64,000 bases of DNA from Candidatus Palauibacter polyketidifaciens (GCF_947581785.1 NZ_CANPVO010000036.1:15490-79489); one strand, 5' to 3'; positions 6,719 to 53,004 are shown, counted from the first letter of the stretch. Program-made: numbers and translations. The notes: a model not told the origin generated them from the sequence alone.

Positions 6719-6731
6719 CTCAGGAGCAGGC

Positions 6732-11821: not shown

Positions 11822-11907
11822 CCGAGGACGTTCCCACGGGGACGCGCCTCAACTATCTTCATAGTCGGAACCCCGTCAACTCCCCCCCGCGCAAGGAGAA
11901 ACAACCG

Positions 11908-13218: not shown

Positions 13219-13316
13219 ACATGGGCACGAACGCGCGCGGCGGGCAACCGTGGTCCGGTCTCCACTGTCACAGCCGGTGTCCGGCCGGTCGCCCGCGTCA
13301 ACCTGGGGAAAACCTC

Positions 13317-27780: not shown

Positions 27781-28476
27781 TCAGGGCTGGAGGCGGGTGA
27801 CCTCCCAATGGTCGTCGGCTTCGCGGCCCCCGTCGAGGCTCCGGGCGCGCGGCGTGTATTCGAGGCGGTCGTGCAGCCGGTTGGCGCGGCCCTGCCAGAA
27901 CTCGAAGCGATCCGGAACCAGGCGATAACCGCCCCAGAAGTCGGGGAGCGGGACATCCCTCCCCCTGAAACGGGACTCCGCCTCCACCACCTGGGCTTCG
28001 AGCGCCGCGCGATCGGCGATCGGCCGGCTCTGCGCCGACGCCCACGCGCCGATCCGGCTCCCGCGGTCGCGCGTCGCGAAGTACGCCGTCGAGTCTTCCG
28101 CGGAGAGACGCTCGACACGTCCTTCAACGCGTACCTGCCGCTCGAGCACCGACCAGTGGAAGCAGAGCGACGCCCGCGGATTGTCGTCCAGTTCCGCGGC
28201 TTTGCGGCTGCCGAAGTTGGTGAAGAAACGGAAGCCGGCGGGGCCGACTCCCTTCAGGAGGACCATCCGCACCGAAGGCCGGCCGTCAGCGGTCGCCGTG
28301 GCGAGCGCCATCGATTCAGGCAGGAGCAATCCCGAGGCCTCGGCATCCCGGAACCAGTCGCTGAACAAATCATAGGGGTCCTCCGCCGCCTCGAGTACCG
28401 GTAGGCCGTGCGTCACGCCCTTGGTGAGCGTGCGGATCGCCCGCAGGTGGGCGCGAAGATCGTCGAGTTTGCTCAT
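27781..28476 (-). CDS. pdxH: Pyridoxamine 5'-phosphate oxidase.
   Basis: MSKLDDLRAHLRAIRTL...RMVLLKG...FRFFTNFGSRKAAEL...SLCFHW...RVEG. The C-terminal WEVTRLQP is typical of PdxH. ATG at 28476 overlaps the upstream stop (ATGA). Confidence 0.85.
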   Translation of the reverse strand: MSKLDDLRAHLRAIRTLTKGVTHGLPVLEAAEDPYDLFSDWFRDAEASGLLLPESMALATATADGRPSVRMVLLKGVGPAGFRFFTNFGSRKAAELDDNPRASLCFHWSVLERQVRVEGRVERLSAEDSTAYFATRDRGSRIGAWASAQSRPIADRAALEAQVVEAESRFRGRDVPLPDFWGGYRLVPDRFEFWQGRANRLHDRLEYTPRARSLDGGREADDHWEVTRLQP

Positions 28477-30182: not shown

Positions 30183-30287
30183 CGCTCATCCAGCCCCGTA
30201 TCGTCGACCACCATGGGCGACGCGCCCCAGGATGCGCCCGCCGGTTCCCGGCCGCAACGAATCCGGACACCCCGGAGGCCCGAGGCG

Positions 30288-38223: not shown

Positions 38224-38712
38224 TTAGTGCTCGTGGACGTGAACGTGGAGCGGCGCGGTCACGAAGTCCGCGTGCCCCGACCCGACCGCACCGTGCATCA
38301 GGCTGAAGGTCACGTCCGTATCGCCCTCCGCCACTCCGTGCAGGTGTCCTCCGAACTCGCCGGGGGTGTCCTGCTCGAACTCCGCGACGGATTCGTCCTC
38401 GACCTCGACCATCAGGTAGAAGTCGCTGCCGAGCGTGACCGCCTGCGCGTTGTGATCTACGAACATGACCTGGATATGGGCGGTTTCCTCGCCGGGCTCG
38501 ACCTCGAGTTCTCCCGTCCACTGTCCGGTGTCTCCGTTGTAGGCGGCGATGTTCTGGCCGCTCAGCGACAGGATCACGCCCTCGACTTCTTCGGCATGAT
38601 CTTCCTCATCGTCATGATCGTGGGGTTCCATGGCGCTGTCGCCGCAGGCGGCAAGGACGAGCAGTCCCGCGGTCAGCAGGGCGAATGGCCGTTTCGGCTG
38701 AAAATGTCTCAT
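38224..38712 (-). CDS. His-rich metal-binding lipoprotein.
   Basis: Lipobox LVLAAC. N-terminal EPHDHDDEEDH, C-terminal GHLHGVAEG...HGAVGSGHADFVTAPLHVHVHEH. It lies 80 bp downstream of the TonB-dependent receptor on the same strand. Confidence 0.65.
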   Translation of the reverse strand: MRHFQPKRPFALLTAGLLVLAACGDSAMEPHDHDDEEDHAEEVEGVILSLSGQNIAAYNGDTGQWTGELEVEPGEETAHIQVMFVDHNAQAVTLGSDFYLMVEVEDESVAEFEQDTPGEFGGHLHGVAEGDTDVTFSLMHGAVGSGHADFVTAPLHVHVHEH

Positions 38713-38791
38713 CTTTCTTCACCTCGTTGTGTTGATGTTCCGGTCGCTCCCGTCACGAAGCATCTCCGCTTGCGGCTTCGTATGGCTCGCT

Positions 38792-41008
38792 CTAGAAGAC
38801 GACGCGATAAGCCACGCTAACAGATCTCCCGGCCTCGGGCATGATCTCCTTCACGCGCGACAAGTGGTTTCTGTACACTGCGTTGCCAAGGTTCTCCCCC
38901 CGTACGGTGATCACGTTCAGCCGCCCAAGAACCGTGATCCGGATGCCGGCGGAGAGATCGAACACTGTATATCCGTCAGTTGCGCTCTCAAAGGGACCCG
39001 TCCGGTCCTGGCCAGCCGCAACCCGCGTTTCCGCTTCGACGAACCAGTTGCGAGGCGCGTAGCCGACGGCGAAGTGCCCCTGCAGCGGCGGGATCAGCGG
39101 AAGCGGTTCGTCTGTCTCCACGATCCTGCCCCGGGTGTACGAAGCCACGGCCTCTACGGTCAGGTCCCCGACCAGCGCCCACTCGAGCGCGCTCTCGAAT
39201 CCCGTGAGCACCGCGTCTTCTCCCTGGAACTGGAAGATCGGCAACCGCACGCGGCTCAACTCTCCCGTCTCGAGCGGGAACACGTAGTCCGCGATGGCGT
39301 TATGGAACCACGTCACCTCGGCGTTCAGCCGGTCACCCACAAGACGCATGAACACGTCGATCCCTGTCCCGCGCTCCACCTCGAGCGACGGGTTCCCGAC
39401 CTCGAAGGCGTAGGCCGCCAGATGGGGACCCTCCGAGAAGAGTTCGTTGACGCTGGGGGTGCGGAACGCCCTGGCGACGGAAGCACCCACCGTGAAGCTC
39501 GGCGTGAGCTGCGCCAGGGCCCCAAGGGACCCGGATGCCGCACCGAACGATCTCTCGCGGATGTGGCCGATGTCGGAGGAGGGATCCTCCCGGTCGGGCC
39601 GCACGCGCACCCAGTCGTAGCGGAGGCCCGCCTCCACGCGTATCGGATTCAGATCGACCTCCTCCAGCACGAACACGGCAAAGGAGGTCTGCGTCGAGTT
39701 CGGCGTGAAGAGGGCGCCTCCGAATCCGAAGTCTTCCCGGGAACCCCGCGTTCCCACCCCTCCCGAGGAGAAGGGGCCCCAGCCGCTGTGGCGGGCGAGG
39801 ACCTCGCCGCTCACCGTCTGGCGCTCGAAGAGCGTTCCCAGGATGTCCGGGGGTTCGATCTCCCGGTGCTCGTACCACGTGTGTCCCGCGTCGACCTCGA
39901 TGCTCTCGAAAACCTCGGCGGGCCGGAGTACGCTGCGCAGCCTGGTCGCGGTCCGCTCCATCTCGACGCGCACCCCGGCGTCGTGACCCCCGACGAATCC
40001 TCCGGGGATGCCGTAGTCGTTGCCGTAGTAGCGGAAGGTCGCGCCGGCATGTCCCCAGTCGTCCACCCACGAGGTTCCGCCGGAAATCTCCCGGATATCC
40101 GTACTCGTATTCTGCAGGGGTCCGACCGGGGTCTCCAGATCGCCGCTGCTGCGACGGGAGAGCTCCAACCGCACCGGGATATGGTCCGTCACGCCATACG
40201 TGAGATTCAGGCTTCCGCTCGCCGCGTTGCTGACGCTCTGTCCCTGGAGGGTGAAGGCGCCCGTAAGGTGGTGCGGCACGGATGAGGGCACATCGTCGCG
40301 AACCACGTTGATGACGCCCCCCAGCGCGTTGCTTCCGTACAGAATCGCACCCGGTCCGCGGATCACCTCGACGCGGCGCGCCGACGATGGATCGATCGCC
40401 GTGGCGTGGTCGGGGCCGCTCGCAAACTCGTCGCCGACCCGTTCCCCATCCTCGAGCATCAGGATGCGGTCACCGCTGAGCCCCCGGATCACCGGGTGCG
40501 CAGAGGCCGGCCCCATGGTGCTCACCGCCAGCCCCGGCTCGGAGGACAACGTCTCCGCCAGGGTTCCGGCCAGACGACGCTGCAGATCCTCTCCCGCGAA
40601 TACGCTGGTCGGGCGCAGCACTTCGTTCGCCGCGCGGGCCACGACCGACCCCGTGACCACGAGGTCCGGCAGCGGGATGGGATTGGCCTCCATCGTCACC
40701 AGTACGATCTCTTCCGCCGATGCATCGACTTCCAGCGCGACCGTGCGGTAGCCCAGCCGTTCGACCCGCACCGTGTAGGTTCGCGGGCCCGGCACCGGGA
40801 GGTGGAACGTGCCGTCACCGTGCGAGACCGCCCGGCCACCCGAAGCAGCGATGGAGACCATGGCGCCGGCGAGAGGCTCGTTGGAGTCGGCATCGCGCAC
40901 GATGCCCTCGATCTCACCCGCGTGTTCCACCTGCGCGGACGAGTCGGTGGCTCCAACAGCCATTGCCAATGCGGCCGGGATCAGACCGGCCAGACGCCTT
41001 GTCACCAT
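38792..41008 (-). CDS. TonB-dependent outer-membrane receptor with N-terminal CarbopepD_reg domain.
   Basis: Signal MVTRRLAGLIPAALAMAVGATDSSAQ. CarbopepD_reg (EGIVRDADSNEPLAGAMVSIAA...YTVRVERLGY). Plug (PVIRGLSGDRILMLEDGERVGDE). 22-strand barrel ending ...SVAYRVVF (C-terminal aromatic). Confidence 0.85.
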   Translation of the reverse strand: MVTRRLAGLIPAALAMAVGATDSSAQVEHAGEIEGIVRDADSNEPLAGAMVSIAASGGRAVSHGDGTFHLPVPGPRTYTVRVERLGYRTVALEVDASAEEIVLVTMEANPIPLPDLVVTGSVVARAANEVLRPTSVFAGEDLQRRLAGTLAETLSSEPGLAVSTMGPASAHPVIRGLSGDRILMLEDGERVGDEFASGPDHATAIDPSSARRVEVIRGPGAILYGSNALGGVINVVRDDVPSSVPHHLTGAFTLQGQSVSNAASGSLNLTYGVTDHIPVRLELSRRSSGDLETPVGPLQNTSTDIREISGGTSWVDDWGHAGATFRYYGNDYGIPGGFVGGHDAGVRVEMERTATRLRSVLRPAEVFESIEVDAGHTWYEHREIEPPDILGTLFERQTVSGEVLARHSGWGPFSSGGVGTRGSREDFGFGGALFTPNSTQTSFAVFVLEEVDLNPIRVEAGLRYDWVRVRPDREDPSSDIGHIRERSFGAASGSLGALAQLTPSFTVGASVARAFRTPSVNELFSEGPHLAAYAFEVGNPSLEVERGTGIDVFMRLVGDRLNAEVTWFHNAIADYVFPLETGELSRVRLPIFQFQGEDAVLTGFESALEWALVGDLTVEAVASYTRGRIVETDEPLPLIPPLQGHFAVGYAPRNWFVEAETRVAAGQDRTGPFESATDGYTVFDLSAGIRITVLGRLNVITVRGENLGNAVYRNHLSRVKEIMPEAGRSVSVAYRVVF

Positions 41009-41168
41009 GGACAGCCTTCTTCGAGACGCAACGGCAACCGCTTCTGCTGGAGCGGCGCGGTGCATCTCGCTGAAAACGCTTCTGCGGGTAACGGGTGTTT
41101 CGGGAGACTTGCGATCCGCCTCCCACGGGACGATCGGGGGGCTTCCGGGACGACGGCCCGGAAGCGGG

Positions 41169-41663
41169 TCAGGCTCGAGGAGGGGCTCGGGGACCGCTCC
41201 CGCCGGGCGGTGTCGGGCGGCGTTGCCAGACGTTCGCGGTCGGGGTGTCGGGGCTGGTCTCGGATACCGCCGACAGCTCGATCGGTATCAGGGGAGGAAA
41301 CCCCGGCGACACGGTACGGGCCAACTGGCACAGCAGGTGGTTGTGCCCGGAGTCGCCCTCTTCGTGCTCCCCTTCAACGTGCACGACGGCGCTCGGCGCT
41401 TCGGCTTCAAGCACCGCATCCACCGCTGGCAGAATGGCGAACACCAAGGCCTGAAGGAGGACGATGGCGTGAACGCCGAGCCGGCGAAGATCCCGCGGCT
41501 GTTGAGGAGGAATCCGCTTCACAGCTATGCCGTCAGAGTATTCCGGGTGCCGCCAAAGGGCACTCCGGATCAAGTGCTGGAAGCTGCGTTCGGTGGCGGA
41601 ACGAGTCAAGTTGGCGGCCCGTCCGCATCGGGCGGTTGCCGCGGATCGCGGAACGGGTAGCAT
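41169..41663 (-). CDS. Possible small His/Cys-containing membrane protein upstream of the TonB receptor. Weak call.
   Basis: ATG at 41663. One TM (VHAIVLLQALVFAILPAVDAVL) followed by HVEGEHEEGDSGHNHLLCQ. It lies between the receptor and the divergently transcribed copC. Composition is partly shadow-like. Confidence 0.3.
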   Translation of the reverse strand: MLPVPRSAATARCGRAANLTRSATERSFQHLIRSALWRHPEYSDGIAVKRIPPQQPRDLRRLGVHAIVLLQALVFAILPAVDAVLEAEAPSAVVHVEGEHEEGDSGHNHLLCQLARTVSPGFPPLIPIELSAVSETSPDTPTANVWQRRPTPPGGSGPRAPPRA

Positions 41664-43105: not shown

Positions 43106-44026
43106 ATGAACCACCGCTCGATTCCCATCGCGACGGTCGTCTGTGCCCTGCTCGGAACGGCTTCGGCCGCCCTCGCGCAGGGGGCTCCGGGGGCGTGCGT
43201 CGCCCCGGGATCCTCGCTGCGCCTCGACCACGTGCCCATCGCCGTCGAAGACCTCGAGGCCCTCTCGCAGCGACTCACCGACGAGTTCGGTTTCCGGGTC
43301 CGGAGTCCCGAGCGGGACGAGAACGGTCTCGCGACGGCATCGATTCCGTTCGGCGACGGGACCCGGCTCGAACTGAGGACGATGAAACCTGCCCCTGCCC
43401 CCGGCCCCGACGCGCCGGGCACCGTGGAAGCGCAGCGTTACGCGGACCTCATCGCCGATGGCGGAGGCGGGGCGTATCTCGCGTTCTCCGGTCCGACGCC
43501 GGCGGGCGTCCTGGAGATCGCGGGCGAACTTGAACCCGAGTTGGCCGCGGTTTCGGGCGGAGCGGGCCCCCGGGTCGTCTTCCCCCGAGGCCACCCGCTT
43601 CACCCCGTGTTCTTCGTGACCTCCGATCCCGGGAGGGCGACGTCGGCGGACCCGGCGCCGCACCCGAACGGCGCCCGCGGACTCGAGGCGGTGTGGGTGA
43701 TGGTGGAAGACCCGGAGCGCCTCACGCGGTTCCTGCTCGCCTTCGGGGCCCGCGACTGCGGCCCGTCGCGACACCCCGAGCACCTGCATGGGCGCGCCGT
43801 CGGCATCCGCGGCGGCACCGTCTACGTCGTCGACGCGCGCCTCTGGATGGCCGATCCGGAGTCCGCCCCGGTCGTGTCGCTGACCGTGCGCGGCGGACCC
43901 GGGTCCGTCTCCGACAACATCGTGCTCGGCAACGCCGGCGGGCTCTGGATCGAACTGCGACCCTCCGACGCCGGCTCCGATCCGACCAATCCGGCCGGCC
44001 CGGCCGACCCCGAGGAGGACGGATGA
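43106..44026 (+). CDS. Secreted glyoxalase/VOC-like hypothetical protein.
   Basis: Signal MNHRSIPIATVVCALLGTASAALAQ. LRLDHVPIAVEDLEALSQRLTDEFGFRV resembles the VOC beta-alpha-beta-beta-beta N-terminus. Confidence 0.6.
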   Translation: MNHRSIPIATVVCALLGTASAALAQGAPGACVAPGSSLRLDHVPIAVEDLEALSQRLTDEFGFRVRSPERDENGLATASIPFGDGTRLELRTMKPAPAPGPDAPGTVEAQRYADLIADGGGGAYLAFSGPTPAGVLEIAGELEPELAAVSGGAGPRVVFPRGHPLHPVFFVTSDPGRATSADPAPHPNGARGLEAVWVMVEDPERLTRFLLAFGARDCGPSRHPEHLHGRAVGIRGGTVYVVDARLWMADPESAPVVSLTVRGGPGSVSDNIVLGNAGGLWIELRPSDAGSDPTNPAGPADPEEDG

Positions 44027-44967
44027 CGATCCACACGCTCGACGCGCGGACCTCCATCGTCGATCTGAAGTTCCAGGGCTTCGACCTCGCCATCGGCACC
44101 GGAGTCCTGGAAACCGGGGATGGAATCGCGCTCGTCGACCCCGGGCCCACGACCTGCCTCCCCGCGCTGGAGGCCGGGCTCGGGGAGGCCGGATCCGGCC
44201 TCCCCGACGTGCGCGCGATCCTGCTCACGCACATCCACCTCGATCACGCCACGGCCGCCGGGACCATCGTGAGCCGGGTGCCCGAGGCGCGGGTCTACGT
44301 GCACCCCGTGGGGGCGACCCACATGATCCGGCCGGAGCGTCTCCTCGCCTCGGCCGGCCGCATCTACGGCGACCGGATGGAGACGCTGTGGGGAGAGTTC
44401 CTTCCGGTGCCCGCGGAGTCCGTCACTGCGGTGGACGAGGGGGATGCCCTGCAACTTGGCGATCGTGCGCTGCGCGTCGCCTACACGCCCGGCCATGCGA
44501 AGCACCATGTCGCCTATTTCGAGGACGACGGAGGGACGGCGTGGGTGGGCGATGTGGGCGGCATCCGCATCCCGCCGGGGGGCGTGATCCCGGTCACTCC
44601 CGTACCCGACATCGACGTCGAAGGCTGGAACGCGAGCATGGAGCGGGTCATGGCGTGGGGTCCCGACCGCATCATCCCGACCCACTTCGGGGCGGTCGAG
44701 GACCCGGCCGCCCACTTCGCGAAACTCCGCGACGAACTCGCGCGCTGGGCCCGCATCGTGCGCGAGTCGCTGGGCGAAGAGGACGCGGCGGAGCCGGACA
44801 CGTCCGCCGACCCCGCCCGGGCCCGGGCCTTCGCGGCGTGGGTGGAGCAAGACCTGCGCGGGCGCATGCCGGCGGAGCCCGTGGACACCTACATCAACGC
44901 TTTCGGCGCCGGCGACTCGTGGTGGGGCCTCGCCCGCTACTGGCGCAAGCGAACCTCGGCCGCATGA
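44023..44967 (+). CDS. MBL-fold metallo-hydrolase.
   Basis: ATG overlaps the upstream stop (ATGA). LLTHIHLDHATAAG (HxHxDH). Later GHAKHH. Confidence 0.8.
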   Translation: MTIHTLDARTSIVDLKFQGFDLAIGTGVLETGDGIALVDPGPTTCLPALEAGLGEAGSGLPDVRAILLTHIHLDHATAAGTIVSRVPEARVYVHPVGATHMIRPERLLASAGRIYGDRMETLWGEFLPVPAESVTAVDEGDALQLGDRALRVAYTPGHAKHHVAYFEDDGGTAWVGDVGGIRIPPGGVIPVTPVPDIDVEGWNASMERVMAWGPDRIIPTHFGAVEDPAAHFAKLRDELARWARIVRESLGEEDAAEPDTSADPARARAFAAWVEQDLRGRMPAEPVDTYINAFGAGDSWWGLARYWRKRTSAA

Positions 44968-45206
44968 AGCTGACGCCGCCGGTCGCGGGCTTCGCGAGCC
45001 TTCTCGTCCCGGGTCTCGGCCAACTCCTGCAGCGCCGAGTCCGAGCAACAGGCGTCTCGCTGGCCAACGCCGCCCTGCTGGTGTATTCGATCACCCATTG
45101 GCTCGCGGACGGCGAGCCGCTCGACTTGATGTGCTCCATCGCCTGCGCGGCCGTGCATGTATTCCAGGCCCTCGAAGCCGTGGAGCACGACCGCGCGGAG
45201 CTATGA
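44964..45206 (+). CDS. Small membrane protein, 80 aa, hypothetical.
   Basis: ATGA overlap with the MBL stop. Two hydrophobic segments (AGFASLLVPGLGQLL; ANAALLVYSITHWLA). Confidence 0.5.
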   Translation: MKLTPPVAGFASLLVPGLGQLLQRRVRATGVSLANAALLVYSITHWLADGEPLDLMCSIACAAVHVFQALEAVEHDRAEL

Positions 45207-45223
45207 ACCCACCCGTAGTGGCT

Positions 45224-45673
45224 TCAGGATTCCACGACTTTGAGCCGGATTGAGATTTCGGGCTCGCGAAGATCGTACCGCAGGTGAATCCATGTTTTTC
45301 CGACCGCCAACCCCGTGATCGTCCAGGAGGAGTACAGCGCGGCGGTTGCGCTGTACTCCTCGATCCGAGCCACACTCAGGTCATCGATCGTCCAGTTCGG
45401 TCGCGCGACGAACAGATAGGAACAGTTTGAGTGGAATTCACGGTCCCTGCCCCACCGGCGCCGGTTCAGGATATGTACGCGAACCCTCTTCGATCCACCC
45501 ACTGGAACTACGATCTCATCGCCTGGTTCGAGATCTGGCTGGAGATCGATCACGGTCGAACAAGGAAACGGCAAATGCCCGGATACGACCTCGGCCCCGC
45601 CGCACGCCACCAGGAAGAGAAGCGCTACCGCGGACGGCTGCCGGACTCGCCACAAGCCCCTCACCCCGGGCAT
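45224..45673 (-). CDS. Small Ig-like (Big_2-like) lipoprotein A, tandem paralog.
   Basis: MPGVRGLWRVRQPSAVALLFLVACGG lipobox. Two Cys in the mature part. NWTIDDLSVARIEEYS...WTITGLAVGKTWI. Lower GC than genome background. Confidence 0.6.
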   Translation of the reverse strand: MPGVRGLWRVRQPSAVALLFLVACGGAEVVSGHLPFPCSTVIDLQPDLEPGDEIVVPVGGSKRVRVHILNRRRWGRDREFHSNCSYLFVARPNWTIDDLSVARIEEYSATAALYSSWTITGLAVGKTWIHLRYDLREPEISIRLKVVES

Positions 45674-45729
45674 ACGGTCTCGCCGCAGCCGGTGTCGACG
45701 GGGATCGTCCATGTGACCGAGGGTTGCTC
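45652..45729. repeat. Copy 2 of a ~77-bp direct repeat (about 95% identical to 46110-46187). It spans the stop of the upstream ORF and the start/signal-peptide codons of the lipoprotein gene.
   Basis: TCACCCCGGGCATACGGTCTCGCCGCAGCCGGTGTCGACGGGGATCGTCCATGTGACCGAGGGTTGCTC versus TCACCCAGGGCATACCGTCTCGCCGCAGCCGGTGTCGACCGGGATCGTCCATGTGACCGAGGGTTGTTC. There are 4 mismatches. Confidence 0.6.
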
Positions 45730-46131
45730 CACGACTTTGAGTCGCTTAGAGATTTCGGTGAACGGACTATGATGCCGCAAGCGGATCGATGTTTCGCCGA
45801 CTGCCAACCCTGTGATGGTCCAAACGCCTGTGCTGTATTCGACGATCCGAGCTACGTTGGGATCGTCGATCGTCCAGGTCAGTCGCGCGACTGACCACTC
45901 GGGGCAACCGCGGTAGTAGTTCGGCTCCCGGTCCGGAAGCTGCCGGATTTGCACGTGAACCCGCCGCACTTCAGCCACCCGAACTACGATGTCAAAGCGT
46001 GGTTCGACTTCGATCAGAGCCGAGCAAGGAGCCGGACTGCCCTCTAGCACCGCCTCGTCGCATGCCGCCAGTAGCGAGAGCGCTACCAGTGGTAGCAGCC
46101 GGAACCTCCGCAGCCCACTCACCCAGGGCAT
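45661..46131 (-). CDS. Small Ig-like lipoprotein B, paralog of A, carrying the same 22-aa C-terminal tail as the S8 protease.
   Basis: MPWVSGLRRFRLLPLVALSLLAACDE. TWTIDDPNVARIVEYS...WTITGLAVGETSI. C-terminus EQPSVTWTIPVDTGCGETVCPG. Confidence 0.6.
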   Translation of the reverse strand: MPWVSGLRRFRLLPLVALSLLAACDEAVLEGSPAPCSALIEVEPRFDIVVRVAEVRRVHVQIRQLPDREPNYYRGCPEWSVARLTWTIDDPNVARIVEYSTGVWTITGLAVGETSIRLRHHSPFTEISKRLKVVEQPSVTWTIPVDTGCGETVCPG

Positions 46132-46187
46132 ACCGTCTCGCCGCAGCCGGTGTCGACCGGGATCGTCCATGTGACCGAGGGTTGTTC
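46110..46187. repeat. Copy 1 of the ~77-bp junction repeat.
   Basis: See copy 2. The two copies are 458 bp apart. Confidence 0.6.
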
Positions 46188-47702
46188 GTCAAAGTCGTTC
46201 GTCACGGTCAATCGCAATGTCAGTGTATAGTTCTCTCTGCTGTTGAACGAGCGTGTGTATCGATCACCAGTACCGGCGGCGGTCCAGGTTGTTCCACCGT
46301 CGGTGCTGGTTTCCCACAGGTACGTCAGCGAGTAGCCGCCCCACCCTCTTCCGCTCCACGTTTGACTTCCGCTCGACGTGACCGAGGACGGTCCGCTGAT
46401 CCACGCGACAGAGCGCGGCGCGTAGAGGAACCTGTTCGGCCCGTTTACGTTCAACCTGCCCTCCGTCGCGCTCGACAGGATCACATCCTTGATGTGAGCG
46501 GGAGACGCCCGATTGTTTTCTTCGCGGAGTATCAGCCACGCTACGGCCGTTACATGTGGCGCTGCCACGGACGTGCCAGACCAAAGATGAATCTCATGCG
46601 TTTGGCTGTATACGGCGCGAACGTCGTTGCCGGGTGCCCAGATATCAACACATGCCCCGTAAGTTGCCGCGGGGTGCTCTTCCGAGTTGAACACGGAGCG
46701 GTTTCCGTTGGAATCTACGGCCGACACAGTGATGACTTCAGTCAGTCGAGCGGGTGACACTTTGCATGCGTCTTTATCGTAATTTCCCGCCCCCACCACG
46801 GTTGTAACCCCGTCAGCCACGAGTCGTTGTACAATCTCATCCACATCGGCGTCAACGGTGTCTGGAGTTGCGAAGCTTATGTTTGCCACCCCGAAGCCCA
46901 TATTGCGGGCGATCACCCATTCGATACCTGCGATGAACGTGCTTTCATCAGCTTCGCGATTATGTGTTATTCTGACGGGGACCAGCTGTACCGTCTTCGC
47001 CACACCGGTGGTGTTGCCTCCGATAACACTTGCAACCGCCGTACCATGGCCGCTGTAGTCGCCTCGACCGTCGCTTAATCCTACAAGATCCACGCCAGGA
47101 AGGACGCGTCCGCCGAACTCGCCGTGGGATATCGTTCCGCTGTCGATTACATATACGGGTACCGATGACGCTGTCTCTTCGTAACGATACGTGCCGTTCG
47201 TAGCGAATTCACGAGAATCCAGCTTATCCAGATTCCATCCTACCCCCGCCGTCTGCGTGTCCAGGCTCGTCTCCTCGGATGGCCGGGATGGAAACAGACC
47301 GGTCGCTTGCAGGATGCGCTCTTCGGACACTCGGACGATTCGCCGGTCCTCCAGCAGCTTGCTCAGGTCGGTGGGCTTGGGCAGATCGTCGGGGTTCGGC
47401 AGCGTGACCGCGAGCCCCGGCAGGCTCGGGTAGACGTACTTCACGGTGGCCGTATGCTCCGCCGCAAGCTGCGCGGCGACTGCGCGGGCATCCTTGTCCG
47501 TGTGAGTCTTCAGGATGTAGGAGTTCGGCACCTTCTCGCCCGGAGCGGGCACAAGCTTGGATGAGTCCGCGCGGGCGTCGAGGCTCGCGCGGGGTGCGTT
47601 CGCCGGAGCTCTGCTGGCCGCCGGATCAACCGTGTCGTTCTGGCAAGCGCTCAACGCGATGGCCAGGGGGATCAGGCGGGACCACTTGGGAGTTTTTGTC
47701 AT
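46119..47702 (-). CDS. S8-family subtilisin-like serine protease lipoprotein with N-terminal I9 propeptide.
   Basis: Lipobox IALSAC. Catalytic triad contexts VYVIDSGT (Asp), HGTAVASVIGG (His), GTSVAAPHVTAV (Ser). C-terminal beta-domain ending EQPSVTWTIPVDTGCGETVCPG. Confidence 0.85.
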   Translation of the reverse strand: MTKTPKWSRLIPLAIALSACQNDTVDPAASRAPANAPRASLDARADSSKLVPAPGEKVPNSYILKTHTDKDARAVAAQLAAEHTATVKYVYPSLPGLAVTLPNPDDLPKPTDLSKLLEDRRIVRVSEERILQATGLFPSRPSEETSLDTQTAGVGWNLDKLDSREFATNGTYRYEETASSVPVYVIDSGTISHGEFGGRVLPGVDLVGLSDGRGDYSGHGTAVASVIGGNTTGVAKTVQLVPVRITHNREADESTFIAGIEWVIARNMGFGVANISFATPDTVDADVDEIVQRLVADGVTTVVGAGNYDKDACKVSPARLTEVITVSAVDSNGNRSVFNSEEHPAATYGACVDIWAPGNDVRAVYSQTHEIHLWSGTSVAAPHVTAVAWLILREENNRASPAHIKDVILSSATEGRLNVNGPNRFLYAPRSVAWISGPSSVTSSGSQTWSGRGWGGYSLTYLWETSTDGGTTWTAAGTGDRYTRSFNSRENYTLTLRLTVTNDFDEQPSVTWTIPVDTGCGETVCPG

Positions 47703-47945
47703 TCCGGTTTTCTCTTCTCGGATCGACGTTCATCGGCGGACCTGAATCGGCGTGAAACAGGTCCAGGGCCGGGTCGGCACGCCCACGTCCAGGGCGAGGT
47801 CGAGTCGTGGCGAGCAGGACTCCGGCGTTTTCGGACCTGATGCTGGCCATGTGTCGGCATCGAAGGAAGAGACAGGATCGATGAATCAGGGGCGAAAGTG
47901 ATGGGAAGGAAACAACAACGATGGTAAGGCTTTACGGCAGCGCGG

Positions 47946-48743
47946 TCAGTCCGTCGGCGGCCGCTTCGCCACGGCCTCCGAGACGGTCTCTTCCAGCAGC
48001 GGCCGCAGGTACTTCGACACGAACGACGCGAGCAGGTGCTCCGGTGCGATCCGTTCGAGTTCGGTGAGCGTGCATCCGAGCCAGGCGCGGGATCTGCGAT
48101 TCAGGGTCGCGCGGGCAAGCCCGAGATGCTCGCTCACCTTCGTCCATGTGGAACCTGCAAGACGAAGCTGGAGCGCCCGGAGCAGCACGAGCCCGCCGAT
48201 GAACGAACTCAACGTCGTCACGCCTCCCGCGTGTATCCTGAACTGCTGCGAGATCGTGATCGGAGAGCGGCGTACGGCCTGCGCCAGCTCGGCGACGTTC
48301 CGCACAGGCATGCTCCTGGCCCTCTGAAAGCTATGGACGAGGCCCGCGCGGAGGGCCGGCGGCAGCCCGGATCGCCGGACCGTCTCGGACAGGCGTGACA
48401 GCGCGACGGTGTGGCGAGCCTCCTCGACCTGGGATTGGAGTTGGGTCTGAACATCATCGAACCAGACGAGAGAGAAGATATTCACACCGCGCAACAAACG
48501 AGGGACGCTGATATCGCGATCCGTCACCAGGATGACCGGAATCAACGGGAGTCTCCGCCCGATGTCCTTGATCAGTACGATTCTGTCCTCGATGAACCGG
48601 CTCCGGCAGCCGATAATCATACAGTCGGTCCGGCTGTCGGCTGAAGTGAGTTCGCTCGCGTCGCCGACTATGATGGCGGCGTCATCAACGGTTTGCCGTA
48701 TGCGCTCGGCATCGGCGCACGTATCCGCCAGGAGCAGGATCAT
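47946..48743 (-). CDS. Transcriptional regulator: AraC-type HTH C-terminal domain with a degenerate receiver-like N-terminal domain.
   Basis: C-terminus VAELAQAVRRSPITISQQFRIHAGGVTTLSSFIGGLVLLRALQLRLAGSTWTKVSEHLGLARATLNRRSRAW fits the two-HTH AraC pattern. N-terminal MILLLADTCAD...IPVILVTD is receiver-like but lacks a clear phospho-acceptor Asp. Confidence 0.65.
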   Translation of the reverse strand: MILLLADTCADAERIRQTVDDAAIIVGDASELTSADSRTDCMIIGCRSRFIEDRIVLIKDIGRRLPLIPVILVTDRDISVPRLLRGVNIFSLVWFDDVQTQLQSQVEEARHTVALSRLSETVRRSGLPPALRAGLVHSFQRARSMPVRNVAELAQAVRRSPITISQQFRIHAGGVTTLSSFIGGLVLLRALQLRLAGSTWTKVSEHLGLARATLNRRSRAWLGCTLTELERIAPEHLLASFVSKYLRPLLEETVSEAVAKRPPTD

Positions 48744-48895
48744 TGCGATGCATACTTTTCAGGAAAGAAGGCGAGACGGCCCGGCGGCTCAATCCGCCGG
48801 ACCCAGTTCGCCGGAAACCTGAGAACGACTCGGGAGCGGGAATCGTGACACCGGCCGCCCGCACGGCGCCCGCGTCAGCCGCACCCCGGTGGCCG

Positions 48896-49882
48896 TCAGC
48901 TGGCGGCGGGGCGCACCACGATGGTGATTTCCTCATCGGCGAACAGACCGCCGTCGTCGGCGCGGCCACGGAGGATATAGGTCCCCGGCTGCTGGAAGGT
49001 CGCGGTCACCGTCCAGCGGTCATCCTCCGGCAGGTCCGGGGGGCGCCAGAGCGGCGCCCACGGCGAGTTCGCGCCGGTGCGCGTGTCCTCCCAGACCTTC
49101 ACCTGCGGCGGATCGAACGCCACCTCCCCCTCTCCGCGGTAGACGAACCACGACATGAAGAGGCCGTTCACCTTCTGCACCGTCACGCGCGAGGGGGGCC
49201 GGAGCTGGCGGCCGCTGAAGCTGGGGAACGCGTTCGCGATCGAGTCGACGCGCGCGGAGTCCTCCGCGGTCTCCGGCGGGTCGGGCGGACCCTGCCGGAA
49301 CGCCCGCAGCAGGCCGTCGTCCTCCACGGTGACGCTCACCGTGACCGGCTGGCCGACGATCGCCTCGCGCGTCCGCTCGCCCTCGAGCGTGATCTTCGGC
49401 GGTTCGTTGGACCGCATCTCGGCGTTGCTGGAACCCGCGCCGAGCGCGCCGGTCTCCGACATGATCACCGTGTTGTCGACGATGTAGTCGGGCCGCAGCG
49501 TGGCGTACGCCTTCTCGGTGACTCCGTGGCTCGTGAGCGTCCACACGAGTTCCCTGTCGCCCCAGTCGGCGGGCACGCGAACCTTGAACACGAAGCGGTT
49601 GCGGCGCGGGAGGAAGTGGGTCGGCTGCCCCCGGTCGGCGGGGCCCGGCGAGAACACGTTGTCATCCCCCACGGGGACGTCGATCTCCTCGACCCAGTTC
49701 CGGTTCATGTAGCCGAAGAGAAAGTTGAACGACCCGTCCTCGTTCTGCTCCCATCCCTCGTACGCCGGCGCGACGTTCTGTCCCCGAGCGTAGGTCTGGG
49801 CGGCGGCGGGAAGCGCGGACACGGCGAGGATCAGCCCCAGAAGCGGCACGGCCAGCGCCCCGGGCCGCGCGACCCGGGGCAT
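48896..49882 (-). CDS. Secreted hypothetical protein.
   Basis: Signal MPRVARPGALAVPLLGLILAVSALPAAAQ. 328 aa, no family recognised. Starts 20 bp after the stop of the c-type cytochrome gene. Confidence 0.6.
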   Translation of the reverse strand: MPRVARPGALAVPLLGLILAVSALPAAAQTYARGQNVAPAYEGWEQNEDGSFNFLFGYMNRNWVEEIDVPVGDDNVFSPGPADRGQPTHFLPRRNRFVFKVRVPADWGDRELVWTLTSHGVTEKAYATLRPDYIVDNTVIMSETGALGAGSSNAEMRSNEPPKITLEGERTREAIVGQPVTVSVTVEDDGLLRAFRQGPPDPPETAEDSARVDSIANAFPSFSGRQLRPPSRVTVQKVNGLFMSWFVYRGEGEVAFDPPQVKVWEDTRTGANSPWAPLWRPPDLPEDDRWTVTATFQQPGTYILRGRADDGGLFADEEITIVVRPAAS

Positions 49883-49902
49883 GGAAACCGGTTCGGCCAC
49901 GA

Positions 49903-51507
49903 TCACCGTTCCCGGTGGTCGCCGGGATCGCGGCCATCCCCGGACCCCGATTCGCCTTCGCCGGAAGACTCGGCCTCGGTGGCGGCATCGGACTGCCACC
50001 ACTCGGCGTCGGCGAAGTAGCTCATGTCGCCGTTGGCCGGGATGACCATGCAGAGCGGGCAGCCGACGACGTGGTCGTTGGGGCCGAGCGCGAGCCGGTG
50101 CCGGCGCATCGCCATCTCCTCCACGAACTGTTCATCCGACATCTCCACGCGCATGCCGAGGTCGATGAACATGTTCGCCACGGAACGGTTCCCCGAACCC
50201 TGCCAGTTGCGCGTGTCCGGGACGTTCCGGTTCGCCTCCGAGGTGTCCATGTAGCCGATGATGTGGAGGACGGTCCCCTTCGGAAGGAGCGGCTGGTGGT
50301 CCTGCGCGTAGGTGTAGCCGCGCACCCAGTTGTGGTCGTAGCCGACGCAGTTCAGCGTCTCGACGTTGAAGCCCCAGATCGCCTCGAGGCACATGCGCAT
50401 GCCGGGCGCATGCAGGTGCGGCTCGAAGGTCACGAGCTTGGTGTGCTGGTTCAGCACCTTGTAGGCGTGAAGTTCCTGCCCCGCCACCCCGGGCCGGATG
50501 TCGATGTCGCTTCCGTTGCCGAGCCCGAAGACGCTCCGCCGGTATTTCGGCTCGTAGTCCTCCGGATGGAAGCGGAACCCGATCTCCAGGTGGGCGCGCG
50601 TGTCGCGGCCGTTGGAGTGGAGGTGGACGGAGTTCGACACCACCGAGGAGCCCGCCCTGAGCAGGCGGCCCGCGTCGTCGTCGAAGAGGTCGGGTTCGCG
50701 GCCGACCTCGTGCACCGGCCAGCCGGTGTCCGTGGAGGCGCGCCGCGAGCCGGGCCCCGTCTCCTGGCCCTCGAGGACGCGCGTGCTCCAGATCATGTGG
50801 TGGACGACGAACCGTCCGCCGACCGTATGGCGCCCGCCGTGTTCCCCGTCGCGCCGCTGCGGCACGTCGTTCACCTCGCGGATCTCGACGGACTTCACGT
50901 AGCGGTCCTCGGTGAGGCCCGTGGGCACGCTCTCGATGTCCCCCCACCAGTCGGGCGCGTCGCCCTTCACGAGCACTTCGGGGAGCCTGACGATCAGGTC
51001 CGGCTCGCCCGCGGCCCAGACCACGTCGTCGTCGAACTCGAGCGCGGGCGGCAGGTTCGCCGGGTCGCCCTCGGGGGTGCCGGCGCGCCGCCAGGCGTCG
51101 AGCGCCTCGATCTCCCACTCGTCGAGCGACATGTCATCCTTGAAGTGCTGGATGCCGATGTCCTTCTCCACGTACCACGGCGGCATCGCGCCGGCCCGGT
51201 CCCGGATCTGGGTGCGGCGGGCGATCATGCTCGCGTACGGCTGGACGTCGTCGTAGGTGACGAGCGGCATCGGGGCGACGCCGTTGTCGCGGTGGCAGCG
51301 AACGCAGGCCCGCTGCAGGATCGGCGCGATGTCGCGGCTGAAGGTCACGTCGTCCGCCTCGACGCCCGGCGTCCCTGTCGCGGCATGGCGTGCGGTCGCG
51401 GCGGGCCCGCCGTCCTGCGCCGCCATCCCGCCGGCGGAGAGCAACATGAGGACGGGCAGGACGGAAGATCTCCGGGCGAGAGACAAGATCCGCGTGGTGT
51501 GCGGCAT
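49903..51507 (-). CDS. Cytochrome c domain-containing secreted protein (single CxxCH).
   Basis: AAGGAG 5 nt before ATG 51507. Signal MPHTTRILSLARRSSVLPVLMLLSAGGMAAQ. Heme site DIAPILQRACVRCHRDNGVAPMPL. 534 aa. Confidence 0.6.
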   Translation of the reverse strand: MPHTTRILSLARRSSVLPVLMLLSAGGMAAQDGGPAATARHAATGTPGVEADDVTFSRDIAPILQRACVRCHRDNGVAPMPLVTYDDVQPYASMIARRTQIRDRAGAMPPWYVEKDIGIQHFKDDMSLDEWEIEALDAWRRAGTPEGDPANLPPALEFDDDVVWAAGEPDLIVRLPEVLVKGDAPDWWGDIESVPTGLTEDRYVKSVEIREVNDVPQRRDGEHGGRHTVGGRFVVHHMIWSTRVLEGQETGPGSRRASTDTGWPVHEVGREPDLFDDDAGRLLRAGSSVVSNSVHLHSNGRDTRAHLEIGFRFHPEDYEPKYRRSVFGLGNGSDIDIRPGVAGQELHAYKVLNQHTKLVTFEPHLHAPGMRMCLEAIWGFNVETLNCVGYDHNWVRGYTYAQDHQPLLPKGTVLHIIGYMDTSEANRNVPDTRNWQGSGNRSVANMFIDLGMRVEMSDEQFVEEMAMRRHRLALGPNDHVVGCPLCMVIPANGDMSYFADAEWWQSDAATEAESSGEGESGSGDGRDPGDHRER

Positions 51508-51591: not shown

Positions 51592-53004
51592 CTAGCCACC
51601 GTCGTCGCCTGAGCCACCCGGGGCGGGCGACCCCAGCGCCATTGGGGTGGTCGGCGGCAGCCGCTTCAGGATGATCGTCGGGACATCGAACTCGTCCGTC
51701 TCCACGAAGGCGACGAGGCCGCCGGGCCCGAACGCGTCGGGCATGGGCGTCTCCTCCAGCGCCAGAGTGCCTATGTACTCGCCCTCCGGCGAGAGAACAT
51801 CGATCCAACCGGCCGCTGCCTCCTCCCTTTCCGGCCCTCCGGCCACGACTGGGGCCTCAGCATCGATCTGCGCCAGGGGGTCGCTCCCCCAGCGCTGAAC
51901 CCAGATCGCCCCCTCCCACGTCGTCCGCAGGTCCCGCACGATGGGCACTTCCGGCATGAAGTCCGCGTTCGCCATTGCGTCGCGCATCCCGGCCATCATC
52001 TCCTCCAGCATCGCCGCCACCTGCGCGCGAACCTCCGGCGGGAGATCGTCGAACGACTGGCCGTTGAACTGTCCGGTAGCCGAGGCTTCCAGAGCTTCCA
52101 GCATCCGGGCCCGGGCGCGCTCCCGCAGCGATTCCGTGACGGGCTCGGGCTGGAGGGGGCGGCCGATGACACGGACCGGAGCCCCGGGGGTCGGCTGGAT
52201 CTTGATCGCGTAGGCGGAGGAATCCGAGTACGCCACGCCGCCGCCTGGGAGGACATCGAACACGAGGTCCGGCACGAACCCCATGAACGCGTCGCCGAAA
52301 GCGTCGAACATGTCCGACGGATCCGCCGCCTCCATCGTGACCTCCTGCTCCGGCTGCGCCTCCCACCCTTCCGCGAAGGGCACCGCGGTGGCCTCGTCCG
52401 CGGTGGCCTCGGCCGCGTCGGCGAGCGACGTGCGGTAGATGGTGCGGTCGCCGGCCTCGATGGACGCTTCCCCGTTGCTGAAGCGCGCGTTCGGGCTTCG
52501 AGTCAGGAACAGGGTTTCCCCCTCCCGGGCGGCGCGCACGGTCTCCGCCGAGGCGGTCTCCGAGGCGCCCTCGATCGCGAACCGGACCGTGCGCTCGAAC
52601 GACCCATCGGGGCCGAACAGGAGGTAGGCGCGGTGACCGTTGTCGACGATCACAACCCCTCCCCCGGGCCGGGCCACCATGTGCCCCACGTCGCGAAGCT
52701 CGCCCGGACCGTCGCCCCTGCGCCCGAACTCGGCCACCAGGCCTCCGACGCCATCCACGACCACGATGCGGGTGGAGGACGCGGCTTCGTCGCGGACGTA
52801 GAGCCGCCCGCCCGCATCGAAGGCCAGGTCCGCGATCTCCGTGAACGCGTCCCACCCCTCGGCGGCGATCCCCCCGATCCGGTACACCTCCTCGAAATCG
52901 GCCTGGAGCGGACGGTCCTCTGCGGGCGACGGGGCGGACGTACCCCCGGTCTCGCCCCCGCAACCCGCCAGCAGGGTGATCCACACCGCGCGGCTGAATC
53001 TCAT
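51592..53004 (-). CDS. NHL-like beta-propeller lipoprotein, distant fourth member of the family at 10.8-14.6 kb.
   Basis: Lipobox MRFSRAVWITLLAGCGG. GRRGDGPGELRDVGHMVARPGGGVVIVDNGHRAYLLFGPDG. C-terminus WIDVLSPEGEYIGTLALEETPMPDAFGPGGLVAFVETDEFDVPTIILKRL is collinear with ...[26 protein letters not shown]. Confidence 0.7.
   Translation of the reverse strand: MRFSRAVWITLLAGCGGETGGTSAPSPAEDRPLQADFEEVYRIGGIAAEGWDAFTEIADLAFDAGGRLYVRDEAASSTRIVVVDGVGGLVAEFGRRGDGPGELRDVGHMVARPGGGVVIVDNGHRAYLLFGPDGSFERTVRFAIEGASETASAETVRAAREGETLFLTRSPNARFSNGEASIEAGDRTIYRTSLADAAEATADEATAVPFAEGWEAQPEQEVTMEAADPSDMFDAFGDAFMGFVPDLVFDVLPGGGVAYSDSSAYAIKIQPTPGAPVRVIGRPLQPEPVTESLRERARARMLEALEASATGQFNGQSFDDLPPEVRAQVAAMLEEMMAGMRDAMANADFMPEVPIVRDLRTTWEGAIWVQRWGSDPLAQIDAEAPVVAGGPEREEAAAGWIDVLSPEGEYIGTLALEETPMPDAFGPGGLVAFVETDEFDVPTIILKRLPPTTPMALGSPAPGGSGDDGG

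Follow-up and report, generated by a model that had tools for sequence, protein, structure and literature searches.

A variable lower-GC islet with an S8 protease, two Ig-like lipoproteins and a predicted regulator in Candidatus Palauibacter

Can a short run of genes that differs in base composition from everything around it be recognized as a unit that comes and goes among related species, and if so, what would its genes do for one another? The question is raised by positions 45224 to 48743 of a 64,000-nucleotide (nt) stretch, one strand, of Candidatus Palauibacter polyketidifaciens (GCF_947581785.1 NZ_CANPVO010000036.1:15490-79489), which is referred to here as the window. The organism is a Candidatus Palauibacter (Gemmatimonadota). 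Four genes, all on the minus strand, fill the segment: a regulator, an S8 protease, and two small immunoglobulin (Ig)-like lipoproteins. We found that they constitute an islet which is present at this site in some relatives and missing from most, and that its lipoprotein genes turn over as cassettes. Our overall reading is that of an accessory operon exchanged by recombination, the lipoproteins of which bind the mature protease as guards or tethers; we assign it a probability of roughly one-half. The islet, its genes, and the genes on either side are as follows.

45199..48883, no strand: inserted islet, about 3,685 bp, delimited by blastn junctions and composition
47946..48743, minus strand: regulator, 265 amino acids (aa), from Pfam matches below the cut-off, homologs, and the AlphaFold2 (AF2) fold
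46119..47702, minus strand: S8A subtilase, 527 aa, with PF00082 and aqualysin/proteinase K matches
45661..46131, minus strand: lipoprotein 1, 156 aa counted from M14, with the lipobox LLAA-C and a Big_2-like Ig domain in which two Cys are conserved
45224..45673, minus strand: lipoprotein 2, 149 aa counted from M14, with the lipobox FLVA-C, paralogous to lipoprotein 1
44967..45206, plus strand: left flank, 80-aa membrane-protein gene, the last codons of which are replaced by the insertion
48896..50002, minus strand: right flank, conserved 368-aa gene (p368), its stop facing the insertion site

The islet is bounded by the final codons of the 80-aa gene and by the p368 stop, and it sits within the short intergenic hairpin of these convergent genes. 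Upstream in the left flank is a gene for an MBL-fold protein (44023-44967), and this neighbor was used to scan one genome per species, which yielded about 19 Palauibacter/Gemmatimonadota loci. Both flanks are kept in 17 relatives, and in none of the 17 does a regulator, S8, or lipoprotein gene lie between them. At the island-less site the gene order is glyoxalase, MBL, and 80-aa gene, then p368, p549, and p470, and the gap between the 80-aa gene and p368 is ~30 bp in most of these genomes. Identity to the window is 66 to 96% for p368 across the 17 relatives and 63 to 91% for the 80-aa gene, which 15 of the island-less relatives possess. When nine island-less genomes were aligned by blastn, homology ended at 45189-45198 and restarted at 48883-48895, and 18 to 22 bp with a short hairpin remained unaligned between the flanks of these genomes. 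The terminus of the 80-aa gene (45199-45206) reads ...DRAEL* in the window and ...(Q/R)R* in the island-less relatives of this junction alignment. Besides the window, the islet occupies the same site in loci L002 and L074 and, by read-through, in the source of protein P0086; identity to L002 is 89% for the protease and 91% for the regulator. Synteny across the 17 genomes with both flanks thus identifies 45.2 to 48.8 kb as an insertion/deletion polymorphism, and the gene set, far from being held at the locus by all relatives, is missing from most of them.

The drop in base composition that had first drawn attention to 45.2 to 48.8 kb was recovered by windowed GC content, by GC at third codon positions (GC3), and by tetranucleotide usage. 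GC is 0.6125 over 45224-48743 versus 0.687 for the whole 64 kb, and the 3.5-kb segment with the lowest GC starts at 45201 (mean of all 3.5-kb segments, 0.687; standard deviation [SD], 0.018). In 400-nt steps, GC falls to 0.55 to 0.60 at 46.4 to 47.2 kb, compared with 0.70 to 0.75 in both flanks. GC3 of the four islet genes is 0.68 to 0.79, and that of typical genes in the window is 0.82 to 0.89. In tetranucleotide usage the islet lies 0.315 from the average of the window, and other 3.5-kb segments lie 0.159 +/- 0.030 from it; the distance of the islet is the largest in the window, at ~5 SD. This real deviation, together with the lack of the islet from the site in 17 relatives, supports the horizontal acquisition put forward in a preliminary description of this DNA.

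Other species carry other lower-GC inserts at the same intergenic site, and we therefore regard it as an insertion hotspot without mobility genes. In L012 (11166-12787) and L014 (11166-12763), a 1.6-kb lower-GC insert encodes a p470-like beta-propeller lipoprotein and an 80-aa Cys-rich protein. A 0.68-kb insert in L019 and L020 (10927-11608) encodes a 135-aa lipoprotein that replaces the 80-aa gene, and L009 retains an insert remnant at 11175-11904. The p470 gene itself (51592-53004, minus strand) encodes a 470-aa lipoprotein, of which three paralogs, 28 to 31% identical, stand in tandem at 11483-14621 (plus strand). That the four genes form an islet within a recombination hotspot is the part of our reading in which we have high confidence.

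The second line of evidence comes from the two lipoprotein genes and the way in which they are joined to the protease gene. That two small two-Cys Ig-like lipoproteins follow the protease on the same strand had been noted before, and alignment, AF2 modeling, Foldseek, and the lipoboxes agree with it. The lipoboxes, read from the sequence, are ...SLLAA-C in lipoprotein 1 and ...LFLVA-C in lipoprotein 2, and the lipobox Cys is nearly invariant in both the lipoprotein and the protease families. Alternative upstream ATG starts exist at 46170 for lipoprotein 1 and at 45712 for lipoprotein 2. The two proteins are 51% identical over their mature parts, with the two Cys conserved. Pfam Big_2 (PF02368) matched lipoprotein 1 below the cut-off (E=0.069; 13.5 bits versus 22.8) and did not match lipoprotein 2. 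The AF2 model of lipoprotein 2, built from a 25-sequence alignment, is an all-beta Ig-like sandwich (pLDDT 83.4, pTM 0.74), for which S-layer SbsC domains and filamin repeats were the best Foldseek matches (E=1e-5 to 1e-4). Searching the PDB with the profile of the lipoprotein family returned Nup210 (E=2.7e-6) and, weakly, Big_2/LigB Ig domains.

In front of each lipoprotein gene stands a copy of the end of the protease gene.

46118..46185, minus strand: junction copy 1, the last 22 protease codons, with the stop overlapping the lipoprotein 1 start (ATGCCCTGGGTGA, 13 nt)
45660..45727, minus strand: junction copy 2, the duplicated protease 3' end, in the tail of lipoprotein 1, overlapping the lipoprotein 2 start (ATGCCCGGGGTGA)

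The 13-nt stop/start overlap ATGCCCnGGGTGA lies within a 68-nt junction core that is identical between the copies at 65/68 nt (96%), compared with ~75% for the remainder of the repeat unit; the tandem unit measures 458 to 497 bp. At the protein level, the last 21 residues of lipoprotein 1 (QPSVTWTIPVDTGCGETVCPG) copy the protease tail. This arrangement shows the paralogs to be products of a tandem duplication that spanned the junction between the genes. Overlaps of 13 nt, seen at both junctions of the window, also occur in L002 and L001, and protein P0090 likewise carries the protease tail, independently.

The cassettes change faster than the genes around them. Between the window and L002, synonymous divergence (dS) is 0.57 to 0.82 for the lipoprotein pairs and 0.14 to 0.35 for the protease, the regulator, and the flanks; the ratio of nonsynonymous to synonymous divergence (dN/dS) of the lipoproteins, 0.39 to 0.51, is also above that of their neighbors. 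In the first cassette position the window and L002 carry unrelated types, and comparison of the window with L002, L074, and the contexts of P0140 and P0086 shows differing types at a shared position. From the higher dS and the unrelated types in the first position, we conclude that the cassettes are replaced from an older paralog pool and do not diverge in place. Arrays of cdiA and rhs orphans provide an analogy: variable cassettes, each preceded by a conserved 3' segment of the main gene, are exchanged there by homologous recombination and vary among strains. The likeness goes no further than analogy, since the repeat of the islet is a protease 3' end and its variable unit is a lipoprotein gene rather than a toxin tip with immunity; nothing indicated a toxin function for the islet cassettes.

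The lipoproteins belong to a small family: when 1.84 billion cluster representatives were searched exhaustively with its profile, 29 clusters matched at E<=1e-3. A word-indexed search of 5.8 billion gave 20 family matches, and metagenomes scanned with either the protease or the lipoprotein alignment yielded none. From these searches the family is apparently restricted to Palauibacter. Several assemblies, L001, L070, L072, and L074 among them, break at this module or its arrays.

The linkage of protease and lipoprotein genes extends beyond the insertion site. Protease relatives that are 49 to 74% identical were found in four other contexts (L001; L003/L004; L005/L006; L070/L071). In L003/L004, among Nramp/MOSC neighbors, a 41%-identical regulator lies upstream of a 49%-identical protease and a lipoprotein-family gene lies downstream of it. 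In L005/L006, next to lipoate and 2-oxoacid dehydrogenase genes, a 50%-identical protease is again followed by a lipoprotein-family gene, and in L070 and L071 the protease stands by an SSF transporter. The order regulator-protease-lipoprotein is kept in L002 and L003/L004, and the order protease-lipoprotein in L005/L006. It should be noted that co-occurrence was judged from 12 context look-ups and is not a census. The L071 protease (6001-7008; 74% identical, with the contig ending inside the gene) comes from the same metagenome-assembled genome (MAG) as L007 (GCA_022820995.1). The MBL/p368 site of this MAG is empty, and its relative of the protease stands on a different contig.

In some versions of the module a further gene appears. 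It encodes a beta-barrel-like protein of 198 to 221 aa with a signal peptide and the ending ...LVFQI or ...VVLQI (L001, 9548-10213; L072, 309-905). The copy in L001 overlaps the protease gene by 13 nt, and the copy in L072 precedes a lipoprotein-family gene. This protein may be a third component of these versions.

What kind of protease does the module carry? PF00082 matched the protein at E=9e-33 (114.3 bits; cut-off, 21.8), and its best PDB matches were aqualysin-1 (E=3.8e-48), keratinase, and proteinase K (to 1e-45). The catalytic domain spans about residues 149 to 430, where D187, H219, N307, and S378 do not vary across the aligned family; the triad stands in subtilase order and the oxyanion Asn is present, as in S8A enzymes of the proteinase K/aqualysin type. 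The signal peptide ends in the lipobox ...IALSA-C20, read from the sequence. C20 is conserved in the family together with C520 and C525, the latter two within the C-terminal 98 residues, which are PKD-like (a weak K319L-like PKD match) and end in CGETVCPG, a version of the conserved C-x4-C-(P/V)-G. The S8 class and the lipobox of the preliminary description thus stand. Its I9 propeptide was not recovered by Pfam, since PF05922 gave no match in residues 35 to 150 even at E<=10, and is assigned only via alignment to P0017, a Longimicrobiaceae protein with PF05922 and PF00082. Residues 50 to 526 align with P0017 in one piece (520-column BLASTP, E=2e-58), and residues 50 to 133 are colinear with its I9-annotated N terminus, which places an I9-like propeptide at about residues 50 to 135. 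Residue 6 of mature aqualysin aligns to residue 154, and the mature N terminus therefore aligns near residue 149. As the lipid anchor is on the propeptide side of this processing site, the mature protease would lose its own anchor once the propeptide is cut.

With aqualysin I and proteinase K the enzyme shares the catalytic domain (E=4e-48), the triad with the oxyanion Asn, a putative N-terminal propeptide of I9-like pattern, and a C-terminal beta domain. It differs from them in its lipoprotein signal, in an I9 region that Pfam does not detect directly, in the PKD-like C terminus with CxxxxC(P/V)G, and in a hypervariable loop before the catalytic Ser. Two narrower assignments were rejected as generic S8 similarity, namely, a protease of the cyanobactin type, acting on ribosomally synthesized and posttranslationally modified peptides (PatA, 50 bits versus a cut-off of 421), and a mycosin (110 bits versus 279).

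46578..46631, minus strand: hypervariable loop, protease residues 358 to 375, directly before catalytic Ser378

Around this loop, DNA identity to L002 falls to 56% (46549-46645), compared with 81 to 99% in the rest of the protease gene, and residues 358 to 375 could not be aligned across the protease family. The L002 version resembles that of P0003, which suggests that the loop is a recombination patch. By reference to residues 205 to 220 of subtilisin BPN', we take the loop to lie at the primed-side subsites. At the three informative loci, no pattern was seen between the loop type of the protease and the first downstream cassette.

The regulator had been described as an AraC-type protein with a double helix-turn-helix (HTH) and a degenerate receiver-like N-terminal domain. 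Its own Pfam matches are both below the cut-off (HTH_23, E=3e-4; HTH_18, E=9e-3, 16.7 bits versus 33.6), and the Pfam receiver (PF00072) gave no match. We found 29 homologs, the named ones all from Palauibacter/Gemmatimonadales, among them a fragment, 100% identical, under the name Ca. Palauibacter polyketidifaciens. PF12833 is precomputed in 11 of the 29, and those viewed in context are marked weak or faint. In the AF2 model (pLDDT 87.8), a five-stranded alpha/beta N-terminal domain is followed by eight helices (residues 129 to 255). The receivers HupR, TadZ, PorX, and StyR were the Foldseek matches of the N-terminal domain, with TM scores to the target of 0.67 to 0.75 at weak E values of 1e-3 to 4e-2. 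The receiver acceptor site reads 'DCMIIGCR', with no Asp; the corresponding positions are G/A/S-C/Y/W-R in all 18 aligned homologs, and a 'PVILVTDR' motif is conserved in the family alignment. A PDB profile search with the family returned nothing significant, and no histidine kinase gene adjoins the regulator gene. Because the acceptor position is never Asp, the predicted N-terminal fold is receiver-like, and the C-terminal domain is helical, the protein is modeled as a pseudo-receiver/AraC-like regulator with two HTH motifs in its C-terminal domain. The degenerate receiver is therefore borne out by the predicted fold without the acceptor Asp; the double HTH is supported via the homologs and the predicted fold, not by the protein's own HTH_18 score.

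Like AraC/XylS proteins with a pseudo-receiver, the regulator combines a predicted CheY-like N-terminal fold with a helical C-terminal domain of putative double-HTH type and adjoins its presumed target genes. Particular to the islet are the replaced acceptor Asp (G/A/S-C-R), the lack of a Pfam receiver match, a family apparently confined to Palauibacter-type genomes (29 proteins), and a conserved DNA element past several paralogs. Paralogs in L067 and L069 (52 to 57% identical) lie directly upstream of other lipoprotein genes, which hints that the family may serve exported lipoproteins and proteases specifically. The gene 3' of the paralog in L067 (8107-9915) encodes a lipoprotein of 602 aa that contains a HEYGH motif resembling those of zinc proteases, and that in L069 (7998-8405) encodes a 135-aa lipoprotein.

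The regulator and the protease are separated by a 243-nt spacer which shares 94% identity with L002 and is no less conserved than the coding DNA. Two features were identified in it.

47866..47891, minus strand: conserved 26-nt element CCCTGATTCATCGATCCTGTCTCTTC, 55 nt past the regulator stop, recurring by paralogs
47758..47795, minus strand: two exact GCCCTGGAC(C/G)TG repeats, 26 nt apart, 56 to 93 nt upstream of the protease start

The 26-nt pattern CCCWGATTCMTCGATnnnGTCTCTTC occurs 25 to 55 nt past the stops of the regulator or its paralogs in the window, in L067 and L069 (7853-7878 in each, 25 to 40 nt past the paralog stop), and in L002 (about 1715-1740, with one mismatch); the number of chance matches expected in the window is zero. 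It is preceded by two TCG(T/C)CCC-like direct repeats ~21 nt apart. Going by its position and recurrence, the element may be an operator of the regulator family or a lineage-specific promoter for the downstream gene. As to the second feature, 3 of the 12 CAGGTCC heptamers in the 64-kb window cluster at 47738-47839. The GCCCTGGACSTG repeats and the 26-nt element are candidate regulator-binding features of 47,740-47,925. A riboswitch or small RNA in the spacer was rejected, since an Rfam scan of 44.5 to 49.5 kb gave chance-level matches only and the spacer RNA folds no better than shuffled sequences (z=0.32).

From these data we infer the following course of events. The islet would be swapped among relatives by recombination into the hotspot between the two convergent core genes. 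The regulator, which would not be phosphorylatable at the usual Asp, would control a promoter region with conserved repeats, and from it the protease and both lipoprotein genes would be expressed together, in a single operon with coupled translation. The protease would be exported, lipidated at Cys20, and folded on its I9-like propeptide, which it would then cut off, so that the mature enzyme, consisting of the catalytic and PKD-like domains, would be freed from its own anchor. The Ig-like lipoproteins would be membrane-anchored binding partners of this mature enzyme, most probably as cognate guards or inhibitors sparing the cell's own envelope and, alternatively or additionally, as surface tethers. 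The lipoprotein genes would be swappable cassettes, for each of which the near-identical copy of the protease 3' end would supply both a coupled start site and a recombination target.

The probability of this scheme is not the same for all of its parts. We consider it slightly better than an even bet that the lipoproteins are direct partners of the protease. That they are specifically inhibitors is tentative, and that they are specifically anchors or stabilizers is more tentative still. The guard role is slightly favored over the tether because the cassettes turn over and the loop by Ser378 is hypervariable, suggesting a coevolution of specificity. A bolder form of the same idea, which we regard as unlikely in its full extent, is an arms race in which the subtilase varies the loop by its Ser and the Ig lipoproteins are unrecognized membrane-anchored subtilase inhibitors, held in swappable arrays that include protease-less orphan clusters and that recombine via the 68-nt junction.

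The potempins of Tannerella offer a precedent for guards: these lipoproteins of the outer membrane inhibit the secreted peptidases whose genes adjoin their own, and one such pair, mirolase/PotC, involves an S8 enzyme (PMC9890683). As in the KLIKK-peptidase/potempin systems of Tannerella forsythia, where the two genes are cotranscribed, a peptidase gene adjoins a gene for a small lipoprotein (98 to 132 residues there) of an otherwise unknown family (PMC9890683). Paralogous lipoproteins exist there too (PotB1/B2), and the logic of the system is to shield the outer membrane of the producer (PMC9890683). Whereas the islet proteins are Ig-like with two Cys and encoded downstream, the potempins have an OB-fold or an eight-stranded beta-barrel, and their genes lie upstream of that for the peptidase (PMC9890683). 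The two groups share neither sequence nor fold and come from Bacteroidota and Gemmatimonadota, respectively; the islet protease itself has a lipobox, and its inhibition would be the counterpart of an established activity.

Several results weigh against the scheme as a whole. Regarding mobility, gene calls and family searches found no integrase or transposase gene in the islet, the whole window holds no tRNA gene, the junction alignment contains no target-site duplication, and the borders show no convincing terminal repeats; a terminal inverted pair (I11, 14/18 nt) and direct repeats D6 and D7 were judged to be chance. Searches of plasmid, phage, and IMG/VR collections with the lipoprotein, the regulator, and the islet DNA gave no match. 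All homologs are from the same bacterial order, so exchange of the islet stays within the lineage. The flank distance from the window is 6.7 to 7.3% to the island-less L010, L015, and L008, 7.8% to L002, and 9.8% to L074; these pairwise distances were used instead of the flank phylogeny, which had bootstrap values of <50% throughout. Carriers and noncarriers are thus interleaved, the trees are unresolved, and repeated loss is possible. The GC content of the protease gene is 0.60 to 0.65 versus 0.68 to 0.70 for its surroundings in every genome examined, and low GC may be a trait of the protease gene family rather than the signature of a donor. No promoter or terminator consensus was found by a scan that was centered on sigma-70 and is uninformative for this phylum.

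Other results speak to the partnership. Some members of the lipoprotein family have no protease nearby, namely, those in L007 (11663-12931, minus strand) and L018 (16258-16992, minus strand), both by p470, and three copies in L073 (5001-6684) by a 556-aa Big_2+LRR protein (LRR, leucine-rich repeat). In L001, by xanthine dehydrogenase genes and an IS481 transposase, the protease is followed by the beta-barrel-like gene and not by a lipoprotein gene. The lipoproteins matched no known inhibitor family (SSI, I9, BsuPI, ecotin, chagasin, or potempins) by Pfam/NCBIfam (E<=10), PDB profile, or fold search; the idea that they might be placed in a known protease-inhibitor family thus failed, the weak Big_2 similarity being all that was found. 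Their conserved motifs are those of the generic Big_2 core, and the chagasin-type EhICP2 ranks 42 or lower. Chagasin/ICP proteins (MEROPS I42) are Ig-like sandwiches of ~110 residues that inhibit proteases tightly, and some bacterial members are exported. They inhibit papain-type cysteine proteases via the loops NPTTG, GxGG, and RPW/F. The islet lipoproteins resemble them in the single Ig-like beta-sandwich and differ in that the NPTTG/GxGG/RPW motifs are absent; the EhICP2 fold match (rank 42, TM 0.45) is weak, no better than for any Ig domain.

Among other explanations, the one that fares best, although we still think it doubtful, accepts the partnership and reverses its sense: the lipoproteins would anchor or stabilize the anchor-less mature protease as an active complex on the outer-membrane surface instead of inhibiting it. 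In the dentilisin of Treponema denticola, the acylated N-terminal fragment of PrtP leaves the complex, and PrcB and PrcA1 anchor PrtP (PMC8167434). PrcB is needed for PrtP to accumulate, and only the accessory lipoproteins keep lipid (PMC8167434). The likeness to this prcB-prcA-prtP system is that an acylated subtilisin-family protease sheds its lipidated N terminus on activation, as the islet protease would, its lipid being N-terminal to the propeptide. Lineage-restricted lipoproteins of the same operon there bind the protease and hold it on the membrane, which is the precedent for accessory lipoproteins holding a protease such as PrtP (PMC8167434). Translational coupling in the islet suggests matched amounts, and single Ig-like domains are typical protein-binding modules. 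Against this, the lipoproteins have no sequence relation to PrcB/PrcA, and the PrtP model scored 29 bits versus a cut-off of 300. The accessory genes of dentilisin lie upstream and are unrelated in sequence, and PrcA is a 70-kDa substrate of PrtP (PMC8167434). No cassette turnover is reported for dentilisin, and the islet protease is aqualysin/proteinase-K-like. Fast replacement of cassettes and arrays of paralogs would suit specificity or defense better than a structural subunit, and members of the lipoprotein family also occur where no protease is near.

Less probable is that the lipoproteins are independent surface proteins, either adhesin-like Big_2 proteins for host interaction or substrates of the protease, with the linkage due to shared regulation or mobility. 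The lipoproteins represent a divergent form of the Big_2 Ig domain, protease-less copies stand by the Big_2+LRR protein and by p470, and a dN/dS of 0.39 to 0.51, above that of the neighbors, is as expected of exposed surface proteins. A host-associated role would also fit the abundance of Palauibacterales in sponges (PMC10469786). Other Big_2/LRR lipoproteins are encoded in the window. The second lower-GC patch of the window (28.3 to 29.4 kb, GC 0.615) falls in one of them, a lipoprotein of 570 aa that contains both Big_2-like and leucine-rich repeats (28476-30185, minus strand), of a eukaryote-like surface-protein type that is common in sponge symbionts. However, the adjacency of protease and lipoprotein is kept down to ~50% protease identity across contexts, and the overlaps and the protease 3'-end copy before each cassette tie cassette expression to the protease gene. 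The third lower-GC patch (38227-38718, minus strand) encodes a 164-aa lipoprotein rich in His, Asp, and Glu (HDHDDEEDH..., ...HVHVHEH), next to a TonB-dependent receptor gene (38795-41287); this lipoprotein probably has a metal-related role.

Rather improbable, in our view, is an ancestral presence of all four genes at the site, with repeated deletion elsewhere and a low GC that reflects amino-acid and codon preferences of the families. The lower GC of the protease gene in every genome examined would agree with it, as would the lack of mobility signatures and the unresolved flank trees. Between the window and L002, dS of the islet genes (0.14 to 0.35) equals that of the flanks (0.15 to 0.25), and the islet is therefore at least as old as the split of these two. 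However, ancestry would need many independent clean deletions, given 17 species without the islet, and the nine aligned island-less genomes have a similar 18- to 22-bp hairpin spacer, which is partly lost in the window. Unrelated inserts occupy the same site in other species, the module occurs at other loci, one of them in an island-less genome, and the compositional deviation is concentrated in third codon positions and tetranucleotide usage.

An anti-phage or interbacterial defense module built around the S8 protease, for which the variable-islet location and weak PADLOC matches (generic 'subtilase', E=6e-16; IetS, E=2e-4) could be cited, is effectively refuted by the architecture, since the matches are explained by the shared S8 domain (that to IetS covers the S8 core only), NCBIfam IteS scored 18.9 bits versus a cut-off of 900, no gene for an IetA-like ATPase partner is present, the other three islet proteins have no PADLOC match, and the protease, unlike defense proteases of the cytoplasm, is exported as a lipoprotein and carries a propeptide.

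As a kind of system, an accessory islet with a protease and dedicated lipoproteins is known already. New are the partner family and its predicted fold, the regulator family with its downstream element, and the turnover of cassettes mediated by the junction, as it appears from the repeats. The Palauibacterales, marine Gemmatimonadota that remain uncultured, abound in sponges, corals, and sediments (PMC10469786). For this group the locus is a clean case of a small hotspot of insertion, free of mobility genes, that swaps lipoprotein genes between close species. To our knowledge, almost nothing is known about strain differences in Palauibacterales. One of the inserts would be a complete, regulated envelope-protease module. 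If the lipoproteins are not partners of the protease, this would be an ordinary accessory islet with a protease and surface proteins. If they bind or inhibit it, they would represent a new family of subtilase partners and the third independent pairing of a protease with lipoproteins, after the potempins and dentilisin. Should the arms race be real, the inhibitors of S8 enzymes would include a further, Ig-fold class, and an exchange of cassettes resembling that of orphan immunity genes would be at work in an uncultured lineage of sponge and sediment symbionts.

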